From Bdellovibrionota bacterium (lineage in GTDB: Bacteria > Bdellovibrionota_C > UBA2361 > JBIKWN01), in NCBI GenBank assembly GCA_044356295.1, contig JBIKWN010000001.1, positions 1 through 64,000 of the forward strand: a DNA stretch of 64,000 nt, written 5' to 3'. Below are positions 1-41,724 of this stretch, one piece after another. The translations under genes were made by a program, and so were the position numbers. Every line of letters begins with the position of its first letter. Positions within the stretch are counted from its first letter, which is position 1. Below the pieces are notes generated by a model, which was not told where the DNA came from, did no database searches, and saw only the letters and a program-made list of their open reading frames with translations.

Positions 1-1296
1 AATTTGTACCATTGGAGGTTTCACTCGAAACGGAATTTGTTGGTTTCGCTCAAATGTAGGGGCTTTTGCTAAGACTCGGAGTTTGTACTCACCCGCTTCT
101 TCAATCTCAATTGTCTTTGAAAAAACGCCATCTTTAGCAATTTTATCACCATTTTTTCCATCATCAGTAAGGAAATCTCGAATGATAGGCTCAGAAACTT
201 TATCTGTAGGTGTTACCTGGAACGCAAACGTAATCGTCTGTGACATTTCAGGAAGCACAATCGGCTTGTCTTCTTCGAAGAGTCTGGCTTCAAGTGTTAT
301 TTTATTTTGCGCATAAAGGTTTGTTGGCCATTCTGATACTAATCGAAGCTTTGTAAGAACAGTTGCAAATCCTTCTTGATTAGTCACCCCTGATAACTGC
401 CAATCCCCTGCTGTTGGTTGAGTAATTGTTACTACATCAAATTTCTGACCACTAAACCATTTAATATCAGGTGATGTTTTTGACTGTGTAATCGATTCTC
501 CACTTGGCCTTACAACTGCGATTTCACCAGAGACTTCTTCGCGGTTGATGTAAAAAGTGGCTTCTTGAACATCAGCATCAAGTTTAAAACCTTTCTTTGT
601 CATTGGAACAACTTGTGGTTTCTTGACTGCAAGAAAGAGGTTTGCAAATGATTCGTGAATTTTATCAGCAGTGGGTGTATACCAACTTATTGCATCTGTT
701 ACTGCAGCAATTTCCTGTAGAAGATCTTTATCTGCCTGGTCACTAAAAGAGAGTGTATACACTTTCGTACCCTGTTTTTTTAGCTCAGGTAGAGTCACCT
801 CGACAAGGTTCTGGGTGAGAACTGATGCAGAACCAGCCATTATTGGAGGCTCCATTTTACCATCAGACATCAAAATGATCGTTGTATTAGCTCCGTCACG
901 ATGATTGTTTGCCAGCATCGTCACCGCCTTATCAATTCCTGAGGATATGTCAGTGTATTGTCCAGTAGCAGGAACTGCTTCAATTTCTTGACCTACTTGT
1001 TCTATTTGCGATCCATCAAAATCTGAAAGTGGGCGAACTACAGTGGCATTTTCAGCAAAAGAAATAATGCCGAGTCTGTCACCCTTCTTTAGGAACTGTG
1101 TAAAAAGCTTTGCTCCTTCAACCCGAAGCTTTAAAGGATCAGTGGCAAGCATGCTTCCCGACTGATCAAGAACGAGTACTGCATCTACTTTTTCAGAATG
1201 CGAAGATGAGGCATCATCTTCAGCATAAACCGAAACTTCCAGTAGACTGATGCCTAACAAAAGAGAGACACTTAGATTAAGTAACCAACGAATCAC
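1..1296 (-). CDS. Secreted VWA-domain protein (3' end runs off window)
   Basis: Not in ORF track. Minus frame from GTG at 1296: signal-like IRWLLNLSVSLLLGISLLEVSVYA, then DAVLVLDQSGSM (MIDAS DxSxS); same frame is open at position 1. Confidence 0.85.
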   Translation of the reverse strand, partial: MIRWLLNLSVSLLLGISLLEVSVYAEDDASSSHSEKVDAVLVLDQSGSMLATDPLKLRVEGAKLFTQFLKKGDRLGIISFAENATVVRPLSDFDGSQIEQVGQEIEAVPATGQYTDISSGIDKAVTMLANNHRDGANTTIILMSDGKMEPPIMAGSASVLTQNLVEVTLPELKKQGTKVYTLSFSDQADKDLLQEIAAVTDAISWYTPTADKIHESFANLFLAVKKPQVVPMTKKGFKLDADVQEATFYINREEVSGEIAVVRPSGESITQSKTSPDIKWFSGQKFDVVTITQPTAGDWQLSGVTNQEGFATVLTKLRLVSEWPTNLYAQNKITLEARLFEEDKPIVLPEMSQTITFAFQVTPTDKVSEPIIRDFLTDDGKNGDKIAKDGVFSKTIEIEEAGEYKLRVLAKAPTFERNQQIPFRVKPPMVQI

Positions 1297-1354
1297 AAAA
1301 TATATTTACAGACAGGCTGTTTTAATTGATAACCCCTTATTTTCACGGATAAAA

Positions 1355-1942
1355 GTGATAACGAGCAATACTAAATCGTTGTTTAGAGTCAGTCTTATTA
1401 CATTCTTTCTTAGTATTTTGTTTTCAAGCACAGGCTTTTCCCAGGATTTACCTTTCATCATGCCTCCAAGGGCGGAACTTCTAAAAATTAGAAGTGCAGT
1501 GGTTCAAACGAGCCAAGGTGATTTCCTTATGGAGCTGTTTCCAGATATAGCTCCAGTTCATGTAGCAAATTTTAAATTTCTTGCAGATAAAGGTTTTTAT
1601 AACGGGCTCTCTTTTCATCTTGTTCAAAATGACTACATTGTCCAAGGAGGAGACCCAAGCGGATCTGGAAATGGCGGTCCAACCTATAGTCTCCTTCCTG
1701 AATTTAGTGAAAAACATCATGTAAGGGGCTCTGTTGGAATGGCACGAAGAGCAGATGATATAAATCCCCAGCGACTATCGAATGGAAGCCAGTTTCATAT
1801 CCTTCTTAGAGAAGCTCGTCATATGGACAAAAAATATACAATTTTCGGGGAAGTTATAGACGGATTAGAAGTGATTGAGAAGCTCCGTCCTGGAGATAAA
1901 ATTAAAAGCATAAGAGTATTTGTTAGAAAAGATGCGCGGTAA
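1355..1942 (+). CDS. Cyclophilin-type peptidyl-prolyl isomerase, exported
   Basis: FYNGLSFH, VQGGDP, GSQF, YTIFGEV motifs. Start placed at GTG 1355 because the track start at 1250 overlaps the divergent gene. Confidence 0.9.
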   Translation: MITSNTKSLFRVSLITFFLSILFSSTGFSQDLPFIMPPRAELLKIRSAVVQTSQGDFLMELFPDIAPVHVANFKFLADKGFYNGLSFHLVQNDYIVQGGDPSGSGNGGPTYSLLPEFSEKHHVRGSVGMARRADDINPQRLSNGSQFHILLREARHMDKKYTIFGEVIDGLEVIEKLRPGDKIKSIRVFVRKDAR

Positions 1943-38603: not shown

Positions 38604-38790
38604 CTTAAGCTACTTGTTTCCCTTATTATAACACCTTCAATTGATTAGGTAGTTGCGACTGCTTGGCTGGGCAGCGTCACCATTTTAATCTTAGGAAATT
38701 CTGCCAAATTTAATATCTTTTTAAGATTACGATTCTGGTCTAAATTGACCAAGCATTAATTTAAATATGTAATTTTTCAAAGGGCCATGT

Positions 38791-39426
38791 ATAAAACATC
38801 CGTATAAAGCAATCTTAAAAACATTCTTAGTCTTTGCTTCGACCATATGCATTACGCAGACAAATAATTCCTTTGCAGATCCTATTTTAAATTATTCGTT
38901 CGTTGAAGCAGTTCATTCATCAACAAGTGATAACCTTGGGTTCGGATCAGGAAGTATTCCAGCGTTTGGTGTTAATGGATCATGGTCTCCATCAGAAAAT
39001 CTTTTTGTTCGCGGGTCATTTTTTCATCAAGATGATACTGGATACAATGCACATGGATTTTCATATTCATTTGGTGGATATGTTCCTTTAAGCAAATCTG
39101 TTCATCTTCTTGGTTCTTTTGGTTGGATAGATGAAAGAGCAAGCACAGATGCTGGTGACTCTGACAACGTACTCCCGAGAGATGTATTTAATAAGACTGA
39201 CTCGTTCATCAGCCCAGAATTGAGAATTAGCCTTTTTGATTCAACCGAACTAAATCTGGGATATACTCGTTTTCTAGACGAAGGAACAATTAATTCTACA
39301 AGCCAAAATAGCTATAAAATTGGAACAGTAATAAGAACAAGCCAAGACACTGCACTAGTTTTAGGTTGGGATATTTACGATTCTAATGCTCAAAAGTTTT
39401 CTGCAGGGATAAGAGCTTCATTCTGA
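38791..39426 (+). CDS. Outer-membrane beta-barrel protein, start non-canonical or frameshifted
   Basis: Frame open 38773-39426: signal peptide ending SFA, LNYSFVEA, alternating strands, C-terminal AGIRASF. The track shows only the last 68 aa. Confidence 0.75.
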   Translation: MKHPYKAILKTFLVFASTICITQTNNSFADPILNYSFVEAVHSSTSDNLGFGSGSIPAFGVNGSWSPSENLFVRGSFFHQDDTGYNAHGFSYSFGGYVPLSKSVHLLGSFGWIDERASTDAGDSDNVLPRDVFNKTDSFISPELRISLFDSTELNLGYTRFLDEGTINSTSQNSYKIGTVIRTSQDTALVLGWDIYDSNAQKFSAGIRASF

Positions 39427-39455
39427 TTTTTCTAAAATCATCCTACGGTGCAACT

Positions 39456-39491
39456 AATCTCCTTAATTTCGTAAATGAAATTAAGGAGATT
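39456..39491 (+). terminator. Perfect 15-bp hairpin, probable terminator
   Basis: AATCTCCTTAATTTC-gtaaat-GAAATTAAGGAGATT then TT, 30 nt after the barrel gene stop. Confidence 0.65.
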
Positions 39492-39519
39492 TTAAAGTTT
39501 GTAGAGAATACTGTTTTTA

Positions 39520-39557
39520 GGTCACGCTCACGCCTAAGGTCACGTTCAAGGGTTACG
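39520..39557. repeat. Single arm of the hexamer repeat element
   Basis: GTCACG CTCACG CCTAAG GTCACG TTCAAG; 39520-39536 is the exact reverse complement of 25081-25097. Confidence 0.75.
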
Positions 39558-39695
39558 TTATCTCCACTCTAAGGGCGAAGAGCCATACTTCTCTATCTGA
39601 TTGAAAATACAAACAAAATCAATGACTAACCTCGGTTAGTTATCAATGAATTTACTACCGACAAGACTCGTCTGTTAGTAGTATATTGAGAATGT

Positions 39696-40058
39696 ATGCA
39701 CAAGCTTAGCTACTTCAAGAAATTGTCATGCCTGGTTATTTGCCTGTATGCGGTAGTCGTATTCGTACCGAACTGCAATTGTGCTTCAAGAGAGAACCAT
39801 TGTCATAAACATACAACATCTGAAAAAAAACAATCCGAGAAAAAGTGTTGCATCAATCTTGCAACAGCGATTAATACACCTCCTTTACTATCTGAGACAA
39901 ACCTAGATCAGAGCGACTATCTTTCAACCAACAGTTTTCATGTACCTGTAATTTATAATAAAGCTTCAGATTCTCTGGTTGAGAAAAATCTAGAATTTGC
40001 AAACCGATTCAATCCACAATTTTTCTATAAAACTCGCGGTCCCCCATCCCTCGTTTAA
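39696..40058 (+). CDS. Cys/His-rich exported leader protein with C-terminal RGPP (DUF2946/CutF/CruR-like)
   Basis: Hydrophobic N-terminus, CNC..HCH..CC, ends KTRGPPSLV. Confidence 0.7.
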   Translation: MHKLSYFKKLSCLVICLYAVVVFVPNCNCASRENHCHKHTTSEKKQSEKKCCINLATAINTPPLLSETNLDQSDYLSTNSFHVPVIYNKASDSLVEKNLEFANRFNPQFFYKTRGPPSLV

Positions 40059-40102
40059 ATAATCTTCTTTATTTTAAAAAATTTATTTATTGGAAACTTA
40101 TT

Positions 40103-40333
40103 ATGAAAACTTTAAAACGTTTATTTACTCTTTCAGCTTTAACATTAGCTATGACTGCAGGTGCTCAATCTGTTTTTGCAGATTCGCATTCATGTAATGG
40201 TGACTGTAAAGACAAAAAAGAGTGCCATTGCAAAGACTGCAAATGTGGCAACGAAAAAGAGTGTACCTGCGACAAAGAGTGTAAAGCTGCAAGTTGCAAG
40301 GATCACCATAAAGGTCATGACGATAAGAAGTAA
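40103..40333 (+). CDS. Exported metallothionein-like protein
   Basis: Signal peptide ending VFA; 50-aa mature part with 10 Cys and 5 His. Confidence 0.75.
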   Translation: MKTLKRLFTLSALTLAMTAGAQSVFADSHSCNGDCKDKKECHCKDCKCGNEKECTCDKECKAASCKDHHKGHDDKK

Positions 40334-40410
40334 CGTCTGATAGCTTGGCGAGGTTATGGATCTTGAAGAAGTAACCTCGCTTTTTCCCTTTGATTATCTC
40401 AATGAACGTC

Positions 40411-41724
40411 TTAGGAATCTGACAGAGATAACATCTTTCCAACACGAAGCCCTTCTCGAACTGCGTAATTAGTACCTCTATCCTCAGGATAAACTTGTGC
40501 CATTGTTGTTAGGTAAAGATTCTCAATTGGCGTTTTTTCGGCTGGAATAAAAGAAGAGTAGTGTTTCGTAATAACAGGCTGACTATACGTTGCGCGCCAG
40601 CAAGAATATCCATGAAGCCAACTTTCTTGAAACTCTGGAAATATTTTCTTAATAAACGGAAGGCAGTATTTAAAGTATTCTTCATCTGAAAGCTTAAAGA
40701 GCTCTTCATCTGTTCCAAGATATTTTGAAATATAAGCGATATGCTCCCCTGCATAGTGAGATTTATCATCCATATTTGTGTGCTCAATGACTCCAACGAA
40801 AGGAAATGAAGGGTCTGAAACATTCAACCAGTACGTTGAAGAAAGTGATCTCTTTAATCGAAGAACTAAACAAACATTCCCAAGATACCTAATTGATTCG
40901 CACTGTTTTCGATACGCATCGGGTAGGGATTGAGTCATTTTGGTAAAAACAGGAAGAGGAACAGTCGCAAGCACGGTTTCTGCAAAGTGCTCAGTACCAT
41001 TTGCGCGCACACCGATAGCTTTTCCATCTTTTACAATAATCTCGGAAACTGAAGTATTTTTATGAATAACAGCACCATGAGAAACTAAAAACTTTTCAAG
41101 CGTATCTGTTACCCCTTTAAATCCTCCACGAATATACAAAAGCTCTTCTTTCGCTTTTTCATTTCGCGAAGCACCTCGTAGCTTTAACTTATTCCAAAAC
41201 CATACAGCAGAAATATTTTCAGCTTCTCTTCCAAACTTTCCTTTTAAAAGAGGTTTCCAAATAACTTCAAAGCTATCTTTTCCTGCAACTTTTCTTATCC
41301 AATCATACGCAGAGATATCCTCAAGATACTTCCAATCGGTAATATATCTAGCATAAAGAGCCATAATTCCAGTTCGAACTCGTGCAAAAAATGGAATTGG
41401 ATTGAATGAAAGAAGGTCAAACGGTTTTGCTAAACGAAATATAGAGTTTGCATAGAAAAGCCCTGTATTGGTTTCAACACGTTGTATAGCTGGTTCAAGT
41501 CCAAGCTCTTTAATAAGTCCAAGTATGTGTACATCGTTTGAAAACCAATGGTGATAAAACTTTTCAATAATAATGCCAGGCGAGATTTCAAATACACCTG
41601 CTAGTCCACCAATTTGAGATTCACTTTCAAAAATAGTTACAGGGATATTTTTTTTTACTAATTCAAACGCTGCAGAGAGTGCAGTATACCCACCACCAAC
41701 AATAATGACTGATTTTTCTGACAT
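40411..41724 (-). CDS. FAD-dependent oxidoreductase (amine oxidase/HemY-like)
   Basis: GGGYTAL, IGGLA, EKFYHHWF, YPEDRGTNYAV. Confidence 0.85.
   Translation of the reverse strand: MSEKSVIIVGGGYTALSAAFELVKKNIPVTIFESESQIGGLAGVFEISPGIIIEKFYHHWFSNDVHILGLIKELGLEPAIQRVETNTGLFYANSIFRLAKPFDLLSFNPIPFFARVRTGIMALYARYITDWKYLEDISAYDWIRKVAGKDSFEVIWKPLLKGKFGREAENISAVWFWNKLKLRGASRNEKAKEELLYIRGGFKGVTDTLEKFLVSHGAVIHKNTSVSEIIVKDGKAIGVRANGTEHFAETVLATVPLPVFTKMTQSLPDAYRKQCESIRYLGNVCLVLRLKRSLSSTYWLNVSDPSFPFVGVIEHTNMDDKSHYAGEHIAYISKYLGTDEELFKLSDEEYFKYCLPFIKKIFPEFQESWLHGYSCWRATYSQPVITKHYSSFIPAEKTPIENLYLTTMAQVYPEDRGTNYAVREGLRVGKMLSLSDS

Follow-up and report, generated by a model that had tools for sequence, protein, structure and literature searches.

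In a stretch of 64,000 nucleotides (nt) from a Bdellovibrionota bacterium (assembly GCA_044356295.1, contig JBIKWN010000001.1, positions 1 to 64,000 of the forward strand; hereafter the window), a short open reading frame (ORF) with a hydrophobic start, a series of Cys and His motifs and the tetrapeptide RGPP near its end stands ahead of a gene for a small exported Cys-rich protein. We interpret this ORF, with moderate confidence, as a diverged and lineage-restricted metal-sensing arrest leader of the CutF/CruR-like kind, coupled to the exported Cys-rich protein through an output that is not based on a hairpin, the two genes together forming a self-contained unit between two terminator-like hairpins. 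Stalling of the ribosome, sensing of metal and control of the downstream gene are functions that we infer, and the features to which they would be assigned are the following.

39696..40058, + strand: leader ORF of 120 amino acids (aa) with a CutF/CruR-like layout (read from the sequence)
39723..39767, + strand: hydrophobic segment of the leader, L10-V24 (15 residues) after K8-K9, a putative signal peptide or signal anchor (sequence and in-house heuristic)
39774..39851, + strand: candidate metal-binding stretch, P25-x-C27-x-C29, H35-C-H-K-H39 and C51-C52 (sequence)
40035..40046, + strand: RGPP (CGC GGT CCC CCA), candidate arrest core, residues 114-117 of 120 (sequence)
40059..40102, + strand: A/T-rich spacer of 44 nt with GGA at 40092-40094, 8 nt before the ATG, and no stable structure predicted (sequence and folding)
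40103..40333, + strand: exported Cys-rich (metallothionein-like) protein of 76 aa (sequence and homologues in the genomes G002 and G011)

A preliminary description of the locus, made from the letters alone, had named a 120-aa ORF with a hydrophobic N-terminus, clusters CNC, HCH and CC and RGPP at 40035-40046, followed 44 nt later by a Cys/His-rich secreted protein, and all of these are present where it placed them. Just two open codons lie upstream of the leader ATG, the whole open frame being 122 aa. The N-terminus reads MHKLSYFKK, followed by the uncharged hydrophobic run LSCLVICLYAVVVFV and then by P-N-C-N-C; no clear cleavage site is visible in it, and the leader may be a signal anchor. 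The Cys and His motifs occupy residues 27-29 (CNC), 35-39 (HCHKH) and 51-52 (CC), and after a polar stretch the protein closes with FFYKT-RGPP-SLV and a TAA at 40056-40058, which puts RGPP three codons before the stop. The codons around the candidate arrest site are rare in the source genome, CGC, CCC, TCC and CTC making up 9%, 8%, 6% and 11% of their families, respectively. The Atlas model of the leader shows no confident fold (predicted local distance difference test, pLDDT, 0.50; predicted template modelling score, pTM, 0.17), as would be expected of a regulatory nascent chain.

Metal-sensing arrest has been shown experimentally, according to the papers cited here, for CutF and CruR, two DUF2946 leaders whose targets are an oxidase or an importer. 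CutF of Rhodobacter capsulatus (cutFOG) carries a Sec signal peptide, a periplasmic CxxxC (C41xxxC45) and a C-terminal G-PPP-RL (PMC9973294; 10.1101/2025.02.05.636593). [quoted passage not shown] The CutF-like layout proposed in the preliminary description agrees with these rules in size (120 aa), Cys/His motifs, C-terminal PP (P116-P117, four residues from the end) and gap (44 nt; 47 nt in the second instance described below), and K8-K9 together with the 15 uncharged hydrophobic residues pass our in-house heuristic for the signal peptide. In vitro, CruR (Bp2923 of Bordetella pertussis) arrests when its two Pro codons occupy the P and A sites (PMC12992588). RAPP and RGPP are reported to be the most robust arrest cores, on which EF-P brings no relief. 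In 10 major bacterial groups no tetrapeptide is reported to be more under-represented than RGPP, which is described as being under strong counter-selection except where it serves arrest; the preliminary description had correctly named RGPP as a stalling motif (Fujiwara et al. 2025, PMC12992588). In the same survey both motifs are over-represented close to the C-terminal end of small proteins, secretory or membrane-bound, that are encoded upstream of diverse genes, including copper-related ones, and this published placement fits the leader, with its RGPP near the C-terminus of a small signal-like protein upstream of a gene.

A second instance of the pair occurs in G011, a genome of the same order and of another family. 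Homologues of the Cys-rich protein were found in G002, which belongs to the same genus (58% identity, E = 7e-22), and in G011 (46%, E = 3e-4), and in the latter a 132-aa ORF lies on the same strand 47 nt upstream of the homologue. This G011 leader reads MRIKNLHYG-ICLFFAVILIP-ICGC-ST-HAH-ALSE-NSHS-CC, with CACTSC further on and FARPPPLRFEHA at its end, and its C-terminus ARPPPLRFEHA puts RPPP six codons before the stop. Both leaders thus have in common an order of features that runs from the hydrophobic segment through P-x-C-x-C, H-x-H and S-E to CC. BLASTP matches the N-terminal 38 residues of the G011 leader to the window leader with E = 1e-5, and a MAFFT alignment of the two shows 32% identity and 34 invariant columns, among them P25, C27, C29, H37, H39, S42, E43, C51, C52, Y75-L76 and N79-S80, and, in the C-terminal part, R104, P107, F110, K112-T113, R114, P116 and P117. 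The score of the pair was reached by 0/2000 full shuffles and by 0/2000 shuffles that preserved the hydrophobic block, in local and semi-global alignment. Synteny in relatives, which the preliminary description had proposed to look for, was therefore found once, as a homologous leader with an RPPP end before a homologous Cys-rich exported gene; no flanking gene is common to the window and G011 loci, which suggests that the pair travels as a unit.

How often such a frame would arise by chance was estimated in the source genome itself. Among its ORFs of at least 200 aa (n = 1856; 772,139 residues), RGPP occurs 0 times against 3.96 expected and RAPP 0 times against 4.41. R[AGP]PP within 15 residues of the end is found in 5 of 8963 six-frame ORFs of at least 50 aa, and among these five a charged start followed by a hydrophobic stretch, judged by eye over the 40 N-terminal residues, is seen only in the leader, the other four being 57-95 aa long. 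A rule-based scan of 4088 ORFs of 60-150 aa gave a signal-like start in 101, PP in the last 15 residues in 119 and both in 5, to which only the leader (1/4088) adds a C-x0-3-C motif. We estimate that the loose CutF-like rule alone would give about half a chance match per genome; what lifts the leader above chance is the strict motif together with the Cys-rich exported neighbor and the second instance in G011. The homologous leader, the shuffle tests and the shared neighbor in G011 likewise identify the leader as a conserved protein-coding gene.

The downstream protein begins like a signal peptide, MKTLKRLFTLSALTLAMTAGAQSVFA, which probably extends over residues 1-26 (40103-40180), and its predicted mature part holds 10 Cys in 50 residues, arranged in C-x-C and C-x-x-C patterns among Lys, Asp and Glu, with the end HHKGHDDKK. 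Its score against Metallothio_Euk is 19.9 bits, below the 22-bit Pfam cut-off; no Pfam metallothionein family was matched above cut-off, nor did the Pfam search give a metallothionein match for the homologues in G002 and G011. A PDB profile search returned nothing relevant and no solved relative, and a large protein search with this protein alone returned only itself. Its nearest Atlas clusters are automatically named metallothionein (score 0.85), which counts as a lead only. On the basis of its composition, "exported metallothionein-like protein" is a fair description, and it might instead be a disulfide-rich peptide with another role. The known bacterial metallothioneins (SmtA/BmtA type) are, to our knowledge, cytoplasmic; the downstream protein resembles them in its high Cys density in C-x-C and C-x-x-C with Lys/Asp/Glu spacers and in its His-rich tail, and differs from them in its Sec-type signal peptide. 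Such a signal peptide is also carried by the precursors of bufferins, which are exported, MNIO-modified copper-binding peptides. However, no MNIO gene (PF05114) was matched in the source genome G000 (93.6% complete) or in G002, and a bufferin-type identity was rejected because of its absence from G000; G011 has one PF05114 match, on a contig other than that of the leader/Cys-rich pair.

In the arrest leader that we propose, the hydrophobic N-terminal segment would, from its sequence, bring the nascent chain to the Sec translocon. With the ribosome at RGPP, the Cys/His motifs (residues 27-52) would lie 64-89 residues behind, and 71 or more in G011, a distance that by simple geometry should place them clear of the tunnel and the translocon; in CutF about 70 residues separate CxxxC and PPP (10.1101/2025.02.05.636593). 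Binding of metal, or failed disulfides, would by analogy with CutF alter the pulling force on the chain and with it the length of the pause at RGPP, and a ribosome paused three codons from the stop would in turn alter the yield of the downstream gene.

Several results, given in this and the following paragraphs, weigh against such an interpretation. Once the first 30 residues are left out, the two leaders resemble each other only marginally, with scores reached by 99/2000 shuffles in local and 55/2000 in semi-global alignment. Conservation of RGPP/RAPP, the other check named in the preliminary description, held in part: R114, P116 and P117 align with the RPPP of G011, but an alternative semi-global alignment sets TRGPPSLV of the window against an earlier TRPSPHLF of G011 and not against RPPP, so that conservation of the motif rests on two sequences and one ambiguous alignment. 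The avoidance of RGPP in the source genome is itself shared by AGPP (0 against 6.25 expected) and AAPP (1 against 6.95) in the same long ORFs, which are equally depleted and therefore point to avoidance of [AG]PP in general, rather than to anything specific to Arg. With a 3-periodic Markov model trained on long ORFs of the genome, the leader scores -0.041 bits per base. This is lower than the 1st percentile of 363-nt pieces from held-out real genes, and of all ORFs of 100-152 aa, 78% do better.

Relatives of the leader are few. A leader profile matched 2 of the 91 genomes of the order and 2 of the 124 of the class, which make up the whole phylum set; weak matches in G015 (E = 0.003, one stop) and G041 (E = 0.006, two stops) were not counted as instances. 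Searches among 5.8 billion clustered proteins and 1.84 billion representatives returned the leader itself and two repeat proteins, and a profile of the two leaders added no new relative in the large protein search. The repeat proteins, P0003 and P0004, were read as noise, since their scores are sums over 5-7 repeats. In P0003, a protein of 802 aa, it is a 25-residue tandem repeat (YHAPVIYNRGPVDIVDVKSKS...) to which the last 40 leader residues (39936-40055) align, and through this alignment the leader was seen to contain a loosely duplicated segment, FHVPVIYNKASDSLV / FNPQFFYKTRGPPSLV; the likeness to P0003 is probably chance plus a repeat-summed score. No Pfam or NCBIfam family was assigned to the leader: DUF1980_N was set aside at 21.6 bits against a cut-off of 25.9, and DUF6769, suggested by an Atlas feature score of 0.95 with only 128 shared features, was set aside as well, having no match at the leader in G000, G002 or G011 (E up to 10).

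The Cys-rich protein itself was found in three genomes, G000, G002 and G011. A scan of genomes of all species with the single protein gave nothing, and a scan of 185,579 genomes, one per species, with patterns from the three-sequence alignment gave only the loci L023 and L024, which add no instance because their core 600 nt are identical to L004 (G002) and L005 (G011). The metagenome loci L007-L009 match the signal peptide only (residues 3-28) and were not used. A match in G060 (35% identity, E = 0.007) was dropped: the peptide is of another His/Cys-repeat type, and no leader-like ORF precedes it. Its locus, L006, holds a 75-aa signal-peptide ORF with HKCSGDKKCSGEKKCSGDHGCHG repeats at 1498-1725 (-), then a 277-aa ORF at 626-1459 (-), which we take to resemble an MNIO/DUF692 enzyme; if this is right, L006 would encode a modified peptide and differ in kind from the leader/Cys-rich pair. 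In G002 no leader is present at the Cys-rich locus or was found in searches of the genome with the leader, which shows that the Cys-rich gene can occur, and can presumably be expressed, in its absence. There the gene is convergent with the same flavin amine-oxidase-family gene that adjoins it convergently in the window (40411-41724, - strand; L004 100-1407, + strand), and a divergent gene lies about 218 nt upstream. The other side of the Cys-rich gene is occupied in the window by the end of an ATP-synthase operon and a barrel-like ORF and in G002, as judged by eye, by divergent queD- and folE-like genes, a difference that places a rearrangement breakpoint at the leader. Comparison of the 229 nt ending just inside each Cys-rich gene showed no convincing promoter or operator shared between the window and G002.

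The output step is where the proposed leader departs most plainly from a CutF-type switch, in which a stem-loop shielding the target Shine-Dalgarno sequence is needed and is opened by the stalled ribosome. The preliminary description had suggested that TAAATAA at the leader stop (40056-40062) could pair weakly with TTATTTA (40083-40089); the two 7-mers are indeed present and complementary, but the all-A/U helix would be negligible and the predicted fold ignores it. The segment 40020-40125 reaches a minimum free energy of -4.5 kcal/mol (z = +1.54), a value equalled or bettered by 190 of 200 shuffles, and its G011 counterpart one of -10.4 kcal/mol (z = -0.48). Whole transcripts were also folded by partition function, once freely and once with a ribosome footprint of 31 nt at the arrest site kept open. 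[quoted passage not shown] For neither locus does the folding predict a hairpin over the ribosome-binding site; a CutF-type switch is therefore not supported, and the output would be of another type. The last 107 nt before the downstream ATG contain 23 C and 8 G, and such a C-rich, G-poor 3' end is compatible with Rho loading as in CruR, while the spacers are A/U-rich and unstructured in both loci. Candidate outputs are Rho access to the 3' end, protection of the A/U-rich spacer from nuclease, or re-initiation.

The preliminary description had also compared the leader with DUF2946-type leaders and proposed a hidden Markov model search, which gave no match for it. PF11162 (gathering score 23.7 bits) matches neither the window leader (E up to 1) nor the G011 leader (E up to 10), and a six-frame search of the source genome with it gives 0 matches. 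Across the phylum the same search finds DUF2946 ORFs in 2 of 124 genomes, G058 and G003, and therefore works there.

L021 1492-1824, - strand: DUF2946 ORF in G058 (PF11162)
L022 1495-1839, - strand: DUF2946 ORF in G003 (PF11162)

The PF11162 scores of these two are 26.0 bits, above the cut-off, and 22.7 bits, below it; the ORFs end in RAPPAL and RAPPV, with RAPP 1-2 codons before the stop, and are followed by a 447-aa ORF with a signal-like start and by an ORF of >480 aa labeled receptor-like by eye. They resemble the leader in belonging to the same phylum and in the order of hydrophobic segment, His-rich stretch, Cys pair and C-terminal R-x-P-P, and differ from it in their CxxC, their PF11162 matches and their large downstream genes. 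A four-way alignment with the two leaders leaves C27, H39, S42, C51, P84, R114, P116 and P117 invariant. The comparison of the two leaders with the two DUF2946 sequences by hhalign gives a probability of 20.5% over 33 columns; the scores of the window leader were reached by 47/2000 shuffles against G003 and 813/2000 against G058, and those of the G011 leader by 14/2000 and 260/2000, respectively. As homology to DUF2946 is not established statistically, we file the leader as working like CutF and CruR and not as a DUF2946 member.

Against this background, the main rival to an arrest leader is an ordinary small membrane-anchored or secreted Cys/His protein, which would be co-transcribed with the Cys-rich protein and act as a finished protein, for example as its periplasmic partner, chaperone or anchor, the proline motif having no regulatory role. 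We regard this as a possible explanation, if a somewhat unlikely one. It would account for the fact that conservation between the leaders is strongest in the hydrophobic segment and the Cys/His stretch, and not at the C-terminus, for the lack of any predicted switch structure, and for G002 keeping the Cys-rich gene without the leader. Moreover, the C-terminal 40 residues of both leaders repeat a loose motif, R-x-x-P-x-hydrophobic-hydrophobic, in two copies each (RFNPQFF and RGPPSLV in the window; RPSPHLF and RPPPLRF in G011), so that a structural motif, of which RGPP would be one copy, is conceivable. Such a protein is harder to reconcile with the absence of RGPP and RAPP from the long ORFs of the genome and with the counter-selection reported for RGPP (PMC12992588), with the lack of a confident predicted fold, and with the similar spacing in both loci, where 3-6 codons separate R-x-P-P from the stop and the next gene begins 44-47 nt further on; the DUF2946 ORFs of the phylum likewise have RAPP at 1-2 codons from the stop.

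An arrest leader could also sense periplasmic disulfide formation or secretion, and tune a disulfide-rich exported peptide with a role other than metal binding, for instance one of knotted structural or antagonistic type. The even number of Cys (10) in the mature protein and its export to an oxidizing compartment agree with this, as do the reports that RAPP/RGPP leaders precede thioredoxin-like and Sec genes (PMC12992588) and that relief of the CutF arrest is linked to disulfide formation in the nascent chain (10.1101/2025.02.05.636593). Nevertheless, the HCHKH of the leader and the His tails downstream (HHKGH in the window, HHHHHKH in G002) point to metal, and the K/D/E-rich C-x-C and C-x-x-C pattern is metallothionein-like, with the sub-threshold Pfam score and the Atlas lead given above, so that we consider sensing of this kind improbable. 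Still less probable, to our mind, is a non-functional ORF, arisen by chance or in decay, in the transcribed or intergenic DNA before the Cys-rich gene, which would explain the poor coding score, the lack of relatives in very large protein collections, the absence of a leader beside the G002 homologue and the dispersed intergenic repeat directly upstream, and which draws on the estimate that the loose CutF-like rule is satisfied by chance about once in two genomes. A frame of similar length with ordered Cys and His residues is nonetheless kept in another family, in G011, at 32% identity and a score that none of the shuffles reached; the leader's own frame scores best of the three, and the Cys-rich gene, certainly real, itself scores -0.006, near the 1st percentile, from which it follows that the coding score penalizes unusual composition.

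Beyond the two genes, the boundaries of the unit and its promoter were read from the following features.

39457..39499, + strand: inverted repeat with 13-nt arms and an 8-nt loop, then a T-rich run, the likely terminator of the upstream barrel-like ORF (by reading; opposite-strand self-match of 39456-39491 at 89%)
39658..39687, + strand: promoter-like CCGACA-18-TATATT (pattern scan, 9/12 matches; 5 such sites vs 5.9 expected in shuffles, hence not above chance)
40348..40385, + strand: hairpin GCGAGGTTA / TAACCTCGC, loop of 15 nt, followed by TTTTT; likely terminator at the 3' end of the two-gene unit (by reading)

The first of these hairpins likely marks the 5' boundary of the unit. It is absent from the output of the promoter and terminator pattern scan, which found no more sites than in shuffles, and the second was missed by the scan because loops of at most 8 nt are allowed. 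In the weak promoter-like site, only 8 nt separate the end of the -10-like hexamer TATATT from the leader ATG (39679-39698), so that the 5' untranslated region would be very short or absent; in the G011 locus (L005 2135-2150, - strand), TGcTATAAT ends 6 nt before the leader ATG, and the leader there is without a Shine-Dalgarno sequence. Judging from these positions, the leader mRNAs may be leaderless or nearly so in both loci.

Directly upstream of the leader, at 39512-39584, lies a dispersed short repeat with a core of about 40 nt and GGTCACG-type direct repeats. A DNA search finds it at 26 other places in the source genome, on many contigs and both strands with 77-94% identity, and also once in G001, of the same genus, and twice in G010; it looks like an intergenic element of the repetitive extragenic palindromic (REP) or miniature inverted-repeat transposable element (MITE) type. 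Contig depth in the sequencing run X2 rises from 4.4 to 60 over 39529-39561. Further upstream, an open frame of about 220 codons (38764-39426, + strand) ends in AGIRASF and has a signal-peptide-like KAILKTFLVFASTICITQTNNSFA and a beta-barrel-like look, without a Pfam match. It contains no ATG, GTG or TTG before 39220, and an ATG at 38788 is one base out of frame beside an A-run; a frameshift, an error in the assembly or an unconventional start might explain this. Identical pieces of the window are found in lake-water metagenome runs, no RNA run being among those that hold them, and contigs of four lake-water runs over 39430-40400, which give partial cover, show no differences within the two genes.

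The preliminary description had not recognised the pairing as one already described. No description of a leader paired with a metallothionein-like gene, or of a "periplasmic metallothionein", was found in full-text literature searches, and the supplements of PMC9973294 and PMC12992588 may list such neighbors uncommented. If the arrest-leader reading is true, the principle of arrest-based sensing reaches sequence families that are invisible to the DUF2946 model, acquires a new kind of target in a secreted metallothionein-like protein, and covers loci without the hairpin that explains CutF, in a pair that is compact (about 700 nt) and self-contained. We further put forward, tentatively and as a rather doubtful extension, that this is a recurrent module not listed in print, in which exported sensors with R-x-P-P gate secreted metallothionein-like sponges. 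Control would need no hairpin at the ribosome-binding site and might act on leaderless mRNA, by way of Rho or of mRNA stability. Bacterial metallothioneins would then include a new class, periplasmic or extracellular, and metal-sensing arrest peptides would have a third output mechanism in addition to those known from CutF and CruR.

The RAPP/RGPP peptides surveyed in PMC12992588 include metal-related examples from Streptomyces lividans with conserved Cys/His residues, as in the leader; the downstream classes of that survey were drawn from annotated functions, which a Cys-rich orphan would lack, and its main text mentions neither Bdellovibrionota, nor metallothionein, nor RPPP. With CruR the leader shares a C-terminal R-x-P-P a few codons before the stop, and the output of CruR through Rho-dependent termination, with no hairpin masking the ribosome-binding site, could hold for the leader as well. 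CruR differs in having RAPP, an intergenic region of 162 nt and a TonB-dependent transporter as its target, and it is reported to act independently of its signal sequence; in addition, copper is said to relieve its arrest and shut the operon off, which is opposite to the logic of a metal sponge. From CutF the leader differs in lacking a DUF2946 match, in having CxC, HCHKH and CC rather than CxxxC, in its core (RGPP, and RPPP in G011, against PPP), in the absence of a predicted stem-loop shielding the ribosome-binding site, which is essential in CutF, and in its target, a small Cys-rich exported protein here and a multicopper oxidase there. The likeness to CutF lies in the small size (<150 aa), the N-terminal Sec-type segment, the Cys motif exposed to the periplasm about 64-71 residues ahead of a C-terminal proline motif and the short gap to a same-strand gene for a putative exported metal-handling protein, and a response in which more metal gives more of the detoxifying product would match it also.

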